From the NCBI RefSeq assembly GCF_035084215.1, contig NC_090332.1:7068001-7112083 (forward strand): 44,083 nt of DNA, in the 5' to 3' direction. Under the pieces are notes generated by a model. The model saw nothing but the letters and a program-made list of their open reading frames with translations, searched no databases and was not told the DNA's origin. Position 1 is the first letter of the stretch. The number at the start of each line of letters is the position of its first letter. This DNA comes from Heptranchias perlo. Taxonomy: Eukaryota. Positions 28,316 through 30,299 of the stretch are shown piece by piece. Both the position numbers and the translations under genes were made by a program.

Positions 28316-28493
28316 CTAGGAACCTGAACAGCCTGCACCAAACATCTCCTGGGATGCATAGGACATGTAGAGGAAGCCATCAGAATCCTTGAAATCTTGG
28401 TCCAACTCAGCAATAGTAGTACACATATTTACTAGACTTCTGTTCTTCACCACAAGGTAAAAAGCTTGATTAGATGACAGAGCCAACCGGTTC
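28316..28493 (-). CDS. MAP1LC3C: MAP1LC3C-like exon 4, stop TAG at 28318-28316
   Basis: ccctttcctcag| acceptor; NRLALSSNQAFYLVVKNRSLVNMCTTIAELDQDFKDSDGFLYMSYASQEMFG-AGCSGS*; ATG8 DGFLY..YASQE.FG motif; spliced CDS 399 nt = 132 aa with the conjugation Gly at 126. Confidence 0.95.
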
Positions 28494-28607
28494 CTGAGGA
28501 AAGGGCAAACATTAGTAAGAAAACTACATTGTGTACCTCAATCATATCCAAATCCAATGGGATATGGATTTTTAATATACCAAACAAGTAGACCCCAGGA
28601 GTAGTAT

Positions 28608-29012
28608 TATAGAATGTACAACACAGAAATAGGCCATTTGGCCCAACTGGTCTATGCCAGTGTTTATTCTTCACACATGTCTTCATCGAACCCCTTCTCA
28701 TTTATCTAGCTTTCCCTTAAATACATCTATGCGATCTGCCTCAACTACTCCATGTGGTAGCAAGTTCTACATTCTAGGTAAAGACATTTCTCCTGAATTC
28801 CCTATTGGACTTATTGATGACTATCTTATATTTGAGCCCTAGTTTTAGTCTACATCTACCCTATCAAACCCTTTCATAATTTTAAAGACCTCACCCAGGT
28901 CTAGAAAAAAAAGCCCCAGCCTATCTTTCCCAGATTAGAACCTCAGTTCTGGCATCAACCTTGTAATTTTTTTTGTACCATCTCCCGTGCCTCTATATCC
29001 TGTTTATTATAG
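28608..29012 (-). mobile_element. CR1 3' fragment in LC3C-like intron 3
   Basis: tagaat..acagaa..ggccatt.ggccca terminus; reverse-complement similarity to 36015-36320. Confidence 0.75.
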
Positions 29013-29277
29013 CTATTTTTCTGCTAGCCTCACCAGTTGGTAGGAGGCTGACAGAGTTCAATCGCTATAGCCAATAGCCACACCTACTCCTGCACAAAAA
29101 AAACAGGATGTCAACATTGGAAGCAATGTCGATACAGCAGCGAGTTATCAAGAAAGACAAATAGGATGAATACCATTTCATTGTAGTCCAACACTGGACA
29201 GGGCATTTAAAGAGCTGTACCACATGCACAACAGGGTCTGATCACATTTACAAATGGTCATTTTGCACATGTATGAA

Positions 29278-29745
29278 CACCTTGCATTTATATAGCACTT
29301 TTAACAGTAAAATGTCCCAAGGCACTTCACAGGAGCATTAAACAAAATTTGACACCAAGCCACAAGGAGATTAGGACAGGTGACCAAAAGCTTGGTCAAA
29401 GAAGTCAGTTTTAAGGAGAGGGGCAGAGAGGTTTAGGGAGGGAATGTCAGAGCTTAGGGCCTAGGCAGCTGAAGGCACAGCCACCAATCAGGGATGTGCA
29501 AGAGGCCAGAATTGGAGGAGCACAGAGATCTGAAAGGGTTGTAGGAGGTTACAGAGATAGGGAGGGGCAAGGCCATGGAGGGATTTGAAAACAAGGGTGA
29601 GCATTCCCAGACCAGGAGCCATATAGATTAGCAAGCAAAGGGGTGATGGGTGAACAGGGCTTGGTGAAAGTTAGAATACAAGCAGTAGAGCTCAAGTTTA
29701 TGGAGGGTGAACGATGGGAGGCTGACCAGGAGAGCATTGGAATAA
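29278..29745 (-). mobile_element. L2 3' end in LC3C-like intron 3
   Basis: Begins cttgcatttatatagcac on +; antisense PITPLLANL; reverse-complement similarity to 3545-3990. Confidence 0.8.
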
Positions 29746-29870
29746 CATATAAACCCCCATTTCACAACACACATACAAATCCACTGTTGGCAAAACCAGT
29801 AACTAGATGTTGACCAATCTATTTATTAGGCCTGAATGCAACGTTTTATTCGTGGCCTGGTCAATGATAC

Positions 29871-29977
29871 CTGATGATGGTAACGAAATGGCTCATGATC
29901 ACATCTTGAGGAACCAGGAATTTGGTTTTGTCCAGTGAAGGCAAATACAGCTCGCCGGGATACCGTTCCACAATAAC
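29871..29977 (-). CDS. MAP1LC3C: MAP1LC3C-like exon 3
   Basis: tttctgcag| acceptor, |gtatca donor; [35 protein letters not shown](R), containing the LC3 signature LDKTKFLVP; 107 nt. Confidence 0.95.
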
Positions 29978-30072
29978 CTGCAGAAAGAAACGAGTATCTT
30001 TATCGAAAGAGCGAGAGATTGAGAGAGGGATTGAGTCAATCGCCTTTGGAGGAGATCCAGGCCAATTCTTAC

Positions 30073-30128
30073 CGGTGTTTTATGTGGGTATTTGGATCGA
30101 ATGAGCGCAGACTCCTCCTTTCTTGCAG
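30073..30128 (-). CDS. MAP1LC3C: MAP1LC3C-like exon 2
   Basis: catag| acceptor, |gtaaga donor; (A)[18 protein letters not shown], aligning to LC3C AIRQEEVAGIRAKFPNKIP; 56 nt. Confidence 0.92.
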
Positions 30129-30241
30129 CTATGATAGATGGGGGGGAAAAATTAACAGTTCAAGCTCCCAGAGCAAGTGTGTCTCCTCTTCCACAATAAA
30201 GACAAGTTAAGGTGTTGGTAGCTTAGCACAGGATCACTCAC

Positions 30242-30299
30242 CAAAGGTTTTTCTGTGTTTGAAGCGCTGAGCTCCGTGTGTCCGGTGCACCACCGCCAT
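30242..30299 (-). CDS. MAP1LC3C: MAP1LC3C-like exon 1
   Basis: agtATGG start (A at -3, G at +4); MAVVHRTHGAQRFKHRKTF then G|gtgagt donor; 58 nt. Confidence 0.88.

Follow-up and report, generated by a model that had tools for sequence, protein, structure and literature searches.

A divergent LC3C gene beside DACT2 in the shark Heptranchias perlo, probably the cartilaginous-fish ortholog of MAP1LC3C

Which member of the ATG8 family is encoded at positions 28,316 to 30,299 of a 44,083-nt stretch of the Heptranchias perlo genome (NC_090332.1, positions 7,068,001 to 7,112,083; hereafter, the window), and is it the counterpart of human MAP1LC3C or a separate paralog? A sequence-only reading had described the locus as a hidden, intact gene, quite diverged from canonical LC3C, and had proposed that it may belong to an LC3C-like lineage kept in fishes. 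We examined its structure and transcripts, its family membership, its neighbors, and its relatives in other species.

The gene consists of four minus-strand coding exons. Exon 1 (30242..30299, 58 nt) carries codons 1–20 and a GT donor, exon 2 occupies 30073..30128 (56 nt), exon 3 (29871..29977, 107 nt) encodes most of the LIR-docking residues, and exon 4 (28316..28493, 178 nt including the stop codon) encodes Lys90, Asn96, Asp105, Ser111, Gly126, and a six-residue tail. The introns (113, 95, and 1377 nt) are all bounded by GT..AG and lie in phases 1, 0, and 2; intron 3 (28494..29870, minus strand) ends in CT..AC on the plus strand. Splicing gives a frame of 399 nt and a 132-aa protein in which Gly126 is followed by the short tail.

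All three junctions were joined in contigs of two of the four runs searched (X1 and X2, from two studies). The X1 contig (2609 nt) starts at 30399 and comprises a 100-nt 5′ leader, the four exons, and a 3′ region of ~2.1 kb, skipping exactly the three introns; over 26300–28492 it differs from the window once. The 5′ untranslated part of exon 1 (30300..30399, minus strand) spans at least 100 nt without an upstream ATG. The 3′ untranslated region (26206..28315, minus strand, ~2.1 kb) has an AATAAA at 26466, and its lower end was placed from the size of the X1 contig, which was aligned down to 26300. X2, from another organism and another study than X1, has the same three joints, including 30128/30242, and likewise skips the 113- and 95-nt introns. 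X1 and X2 were only guessed to be RNA, and we read their contigs as spliced transcripts because the three introns are precisely absent. Contigs of X3 and X4 contained no LC3C junctions, which says nothing about absence. The gene is real, transcribed, and spliced, and the exon lengths, splice sites, phases, and intact frame proposed from the DNA alone are borne out. It is not hidden, however. The product is identical letter for letter to RefSeq XP_067844689.1 (“LC3C-like [Heptranchias perlo]”), and exon 4 alone, used as a query, retrieves that protein at 100% identity. The gene is already annotated and escapes only a prokaryote-style ORF track.

Intron 3 is filled with high-copy interspersed repeats, and short contigs reach a very high depth there. 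Broken LINE reverse-transcriptase fragments (Pfam RVT_1, below cut-off) flank the gene at 25133–25501 and 31491–32189. A GC- and CpG-rich patch (30701–31000, 65–73% GC) lies 400–700 nt upstream of the LC3C start codon; its minus-strand reading and the A/T-rich tail that follows make us think of a Tx1-type LINE 3′ end more than of a promoter CpG island. Up to the window end, at 43420–44083, GT/CT-rich units form a long tandem repeat of low complexity, which yields spurious long reading frames.

The product matches the Pfam ATG8 family (PF02991) at 120 bits (E = 6e-35), against a curated cut-off of 27. Its best PDB match is human LC3C (E = 1e-43), aligned without gaps over residues 10–126 in identical numbering; Gly126 falls, as the sequence-only reading had stated, at the human LC3C position. 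PDB scores were 152 bits for LC3C, 132 for LC3B, and at most 81 for GABARAP-type proteins. The best 120 homologs were LC3C-named or unnamed, except for a zebra-shark protein (P0003) that is called LC3A-like yet belongs to the shark group. The LC3 subfamily is marked by a basic residue at LC3B position 10 and an acceptor at position 50 (PMC7564214), and the window protein has the corresponding pair, Arg16 and Thr56. An AlphaFold2 model (mean pLDDT of 82), a prediction built on an alignment with 29 of 40 rows from outside the chondrichthyans, has helices at 13–16, 19–32, 66–77, and 101–108 plus four strands, and Foldseek matched it to LC3A/B crystal structures (E about 1e-15, rmsd about 1 Å). 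The model predicts a ubiquitin-like core with N-terminal helices, and sequence comparison assigns the protein to the ATG8 family, to LC3 rather than GABARAP, and to the LC3C subfamily.

An LC3C-type gene was found in 21 named chondrichthyan species (sharks, rays, and a chimaera), one per species; the elephant-shark rows, from two scaffolds, model a single protein. The chondrichthyan rows form a single clade (support 100/99, and 99 in the larger tree), and the frame is open through the terminal F125-G126, a scissile glycine after an aromatic residue, in 25/25 rows. Databases file this one orthologous group under four names (LC3C, LC3C-like, LC3A-like, and alpha-like). The elephant-shark copy is named LC3C without “like” by NCBI (XP_007892645.2), which is a label and not a test. 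The zebra shark (P0003) and brownbanded bamboo shark (P0300) members are labeled LC3A-like/alpha-like at NCBI, and the zebra-shark model has an aberrant N-terminus. Identity to amphioxus LC3C was 51–66% for 10 chondrichthyan rows versus 75–83% for 14 bony-vertebrate LC3C rows, and the chondrichthyan stem branch measured 0.62 changes per column, in line with the divergence remarked on earlier.

The neighbors of the gene bear on its origin. Tail to tail with LC3C lies the 3′ part of a MAP3K21/MLK4-like gene (1553..16004, plus strand, likely stop at 16002–16004). Its exon at 1715–1897 matched MLK4 (4uya) at E = 2e-27 versus 1e-17 for MLK1, among five PDB matches that did not include MLK2 or MLK3; the gene is probably the MAP3K21/MLK4 paralog. 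Head to head with LC3C, with 8,778 nt between start codons, is exon 1 of DACT2 (39077..39322, plus strand). Its product is 100% identical to residues 1–82 of XP_067844371.1 (“dapper homolog 2”), and this protein and Heptranchias LC3C are encoded on the same 92,458,575-bp sequence. By eye, the exon resembles the Dact2 and not the Dact4 rows of Additional file 10 in PMC4236578. A Dact4/MAP3K11-type locus was also considered for the window and was ruled out, the neighbor being DACT2. LC3C-like and Dact2 proteins have consecutive accession numbers in Callorhinchus (XP_042201243/4; EukProt P009729/30), Chiloscyllium plagiosum (XP_043552736/7), and C. punctatum (GCC36629/30), from which we read the same adjacency in these species.

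Bony vertebrates differ. The sequence that carries canonical LC3C is as long as the one that carries dact2 in each of three species, bowfin (22,503,034 bp), Atlantic sturgeon (87,443,531 bp), and beluga (93,632,502 bp), and we read the two as one chromosome in each; the sturgeon accession numbers are 202 and 208 apart, so there the two genes are not adjacent. A woodpecker LC3C (P0138) carries the database name of a PLD5 isoform, so canonical LC3C may adjoin PLD5 in birds. Human MAP3K21 and MAP1LC3C are presumably both on 1q42-43, and we assume that human MAP3K9 and MAP3K10 are flanked by TTC9 genes. In bony vertebrates, the genes on either side of Dact2 are Frmd1 and Smoc2, and LC3C is not listed around Dact2 in the accessible portion of PMC4236578. 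According to the same source, Map1lc3c adjoins Dact4 in most Dact4-bearing species examined (reptiles, coelacanth, and ray-finned fishes), Dact4 is invariably linked to Ttc9, and Dact2 and Dact4 are sister duplicates. The presence of LC3C at both sister Dact loci suggests that LC3C-Dact adjacency is ancestral. The DACT2-adjacent position of the window gene is probably ancestral as well, and the order MAP3K21-like, LC3C, DACT2, which differs from that of bony vertebrates, may preserve an ancestral block.

Trees were computed from about 126 columns, with zebra-shark P0003 and seven two-domain insect proteins left out and with a sampling that lacked LC3A/B rows, teleost and gar map1lc3cl, and cyclostome sequences. 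When the topology was free, the chondrichthyan clade fell with the LC3C-like paralogs of lungfish and squamates in all three careful trees (support 91/85 in the full set, 73/75 with lungfish only, and 91/85 with squamates only), a grouping that was never starred. Chondrichthyans and canonical LC3C as one clade were not rejected by the AU test (p = 0.29, 0.51, and 0.24), and after removal of the squamates, the tree holding them together scored above the free one by 0.25 log-likelihood units. Given so few columns, and two stems as long as 0.62 and 0.42 changes per column, the tree cannot settle the placement.

A second shark LC3C was sought by word-indexed searches of cluster representatives, covering the best 120 matches each. 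With bichir LC3C as the query, none of the best 120 of 1149 matches was named chondrichthyan, although the list reached amphioxus and limpet, and no shark member was present in the five bony-fish LC3C clusters inspected (sturgeon, gar, bichir, lungfish, and bowfin). Two LC3C-type proteins each were found in lungfish and wall lizard by homolog searches, and zebrafish has map1lc3c and map1lc3cl (PMC6223212). We equate the lungfish and squamate “-like” rows with the Dact4-linked gene because of their names and because both species have a separate canonical LC3C. The known second LC3C lineage is linked to DACT4, at a locus other than that of the window gene.

We consider it likely that the window gene is a fast-evolving 1:1 cartilaginous-fish ortholog of human MAP1LC3C. 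This reading is favored because canonical LC3C appears to lie on the dact2 chromosome in bowfin and the two sturgeons and because chondrichthyans are missing from the best 120 bichir LC3C matches. Against it, bony-vertebrate LC3C is not adjacent to DACT2, unlike the window gene, and 1:1 orthology therefore requires us to assume a move with breaks on both sides. Bony vertebrates would have moved the same LC3C gene elsewhere on the same ancestral chromosome.

A possible but doubtful alternative is that the vertebrate ancestor had two LC3C genes on one chromosome, one adjoining Dact and the other elsewhere, and that the window gene descends from the copy linked to DACT2 and is a sister ohnolog of the DACT4-linked map1lc3cl. 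Bony vertebrates would then have lost the DACT2-linked copy and kept the other as MAP1LC3C, while cartilaginous fishes would have done the reverse or retained a canonical copy too. Such a history fits the free-tree grouping, the His15 common to the window protein and squamate LC3C-like rows, the separation of LC3C from dact2 in bony vertebrates, and the parallel between the LC3C-DACT2 pair and the Dact4 locus (PMC4236578). It requires, however, one more duplication and two or more reciprocal losses, its tree support joins two long stems and falls marginally short of the canonical grouping when squamates are removed, and the canonical shark LC3C that it allows for did not appear among the best 120 bichir LC3C matches. 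The earlier suggestion of a separate paralog therefore survives in part. The free trees agree with it, whereas the canonical grouping is not rejected (AU p of 0.24–0.51); and the finding of one gene per species in 21 chondrichthyans, with none in the best 120 of 1149 matches, speaks for a sole LC3C yet leaves a separate paralog some probability.

In a more far-reaching form, the gene would represent a third LC3C lineage of jawed vertebrates, linked to DACT2 and with the DACT4-linked gene as its sister. It would survive in cartilaginous fishes alone, having taken the place of canonical LC3C there, and its remodeled ATG4/TBK1-facing surface (Asp105 and Asn96) would make it a functionally distinct autophagy tag. 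We hold this to be unlikely; if true, sharks would offer a natural experiment on positions otherwise regarded as fixed.

That the window gene is the shark ortholog of the DACT4-linked map1lc3cl of fishes and reptiles is improbable. The same weak tree grouping and the “-like” names at NCBI agree with this assignment, but the neighbor is DACT2 and not DACT4, and the other neighbor is MLK4-like. A Pfam scan of 145 intergenic frames (at least 50 aa) found no TPR/TTC9-type domain, a weak test that would miss exons shorter than 50 aa, whereas Dact4 is always Ttc9-linked (PMC4236578); beyond two fragments of reverse transcriptase and two weak chance matches, the scan was empty. The “LC3C-like lineage kept in fishes” of the sequence-only reading is this DACT4-linked gene, and the DACT2 neighbor speaks against the proposal.

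Returning to the favored 1:1 ortholog, the divergence includes sites that are otherwise almost fixed. Residues were counted in a 213-row alignment (17 chondrichthyan and 196 other rows; seven two-domain insect proteins were left out). Position 105 is Asp in 17/17 chondrichthyan rows and Tyr in 196/196 others, and eight further chondrichthyan rows also have Asp105 (25/25). Position 96 is Asn in all 17 and Ser in 195 of the 196 others. Lys90 and Ser111 are likewise present in 17/17 chondrichthyan rows, and neither residue occurs at its position in the other 196, while position 33 is Tyr in 16/17 versus Phe in 195/196. Because the chondrichthyan rows are related, these substitutions are to be read as single ancient changes and not as many events. 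The residues kept in the window protein are Phe58, Val60, Pro61, Phe69, Ile72, Ile73, the gate lysines Lys55 and Lys57, Gly126, Lys32, and Ser93, judged for the LIR L-pocket by the residue list in PMC7615515.

Several of these positions have described roles in human LC3C. Ser93 and Ser96 are TBK1 sites at the ATG4B interface, in which tail residue Arg134 takes part (PMC6945063); the window protein keeps Ser93 and has Asn at 96, so one of the two sites is gone. NDP52 selectivity is set by Lys32, Phe33, Leu64, and Phe69 (PMC3510444). Two of these four are kept (Lys32 and Phe69), with a GABARAP-like Tyr33 and an LC3B-like Val64; an effect on NDP52 cannot be read from sequence because human LC3C double mutants still bound NDP52 (PMC3510444). 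A polyproline motif is made up of Pro2-4, Glu111 is one of the acidic residues whose cluster holds helix 2, and NMR places Tyr105 near Lys109 (PMC6775092). Beyond this proximity, the accessible text of the ATG8 papers examined gave no role for Tyr99/Tyr105. Our literature search, with most subscription journals outside its scope, found no report on chondrichthyan LC3C, its DACT2 adjacency, or the clade-wide substitutions, and PMC10854985 and bioRxiv 2024.11.07.622431, in their accessible parts, have no bearing on chondrichthyan LC3C.

The stingrays Hemitrygon akajei (P0304) and Hypanus sabinus (P0306) have Gln-Gln at the basic positions 16-17, Ala60 in the pocket, and Val120, at sites that are almost invariant elsewhere. 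This erosion may reflect a stronger relaxation in that ray lineage and, as sequence evidence, leans toward relaxed constraint rather than a new role. X2 and the window have at least six coding differences, a small sample, of which three are in the mature domain and all synonymous, and the tail has two replacements and one silent change. A decaying pseudogene or non-lipidated relic, for which the loss of the otherwise invariant Tyr105, Ser96, and Phe33 and the stingray erosion might speak, is very unlikely given the open frames and Gly126 in 25/25 chondrichthyan rows, the correct splicing in two studies, and, small as the X2 sample is, the placement of its two replacements in the cleaved tail.

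By the established ATG8 pathway, ATG4 would cut the 132-aa precursor after Gly126, removing six residues, and ATG7 and ATG3 would activate Gly126 and then join it to phosphatidylethanolamine on the phagophore, where the LIR-docking site, intact in sequence, would recruit LIR-bearing cargo receptors. The changes in the β3-α4 loop and helix α4 (Lys90, Asn96, Asp105, and Ser111), together with Tyr33 and Val64, may alter regulation, as may the lack of an N-terminal polyproline and the shortness of the tail. With one of two sites gone, TBK1 regulation may be reduced, and receptor preference, including that for NDP52, is perhaps unlike that of human LC3C, although this is speculative. Such substitutions are in keeping with a non-essential ATG8 paralog on which constraint has relaxed or shifted.

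The gene and its family are already known, and the clade-wide substitutions are a modest, undocumented peculiarity. They fall at sites, among them a TBK1 site and Tyr105, that LC3C has otherwise kept from sea anemone to mammals, and the shark residues are natural variants for testing those positions. The likely ancestral MAP3K-LC3C-DACT order bears on the retention and loss of LC3C duplicates from the vertebrate genome duplications; a 2026 survey of vertebrate ATG duplications that included cartilaginous fishes does not have LC3C among the duplicated genes in its main text, and it reports that LC3C is narrowly expressed (PMC13020874).

Among known systems, human MAP1LC3C (2ncn, 3vvw, and 3wam) resembles the window protein in its numbering, Gly126, Lys32, Phe69, Lys55/Lys57, Ser93, and the L-pocket residues; a macaque LC3C row is about 59% identical to it. 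The window protein differs in having Asn96, Lys90, Asp105, and Ser111 in place of Ser96, Asn90, Tyr105, and Glu111, Tyr33 and Val64 in place of Phe33 and Leu64 (PMC3510444), no N-terminal polyproline (PMC6775092), and a six-residue tail without Arg134 (PMC6945063), and its gene, unlike human MAP1LC3C, is beside DACT2. The map1lc3cl of teleosts, lungfish, and squamates shares with it the LC3C subfamily, a Dact neighbor, and a weak tree affinity, but is linked to Dact4 and Ttc9 (PMC4236578) and not to Dact2. Identity to the window protein is 63–65% for LC3C-like rows and 59–66% for canonical LC3C. The closest known protein is XP_067844689.1, identical to the window product and in the same clade as the chondrichthyan “LC3C-like” set of 21 named species.
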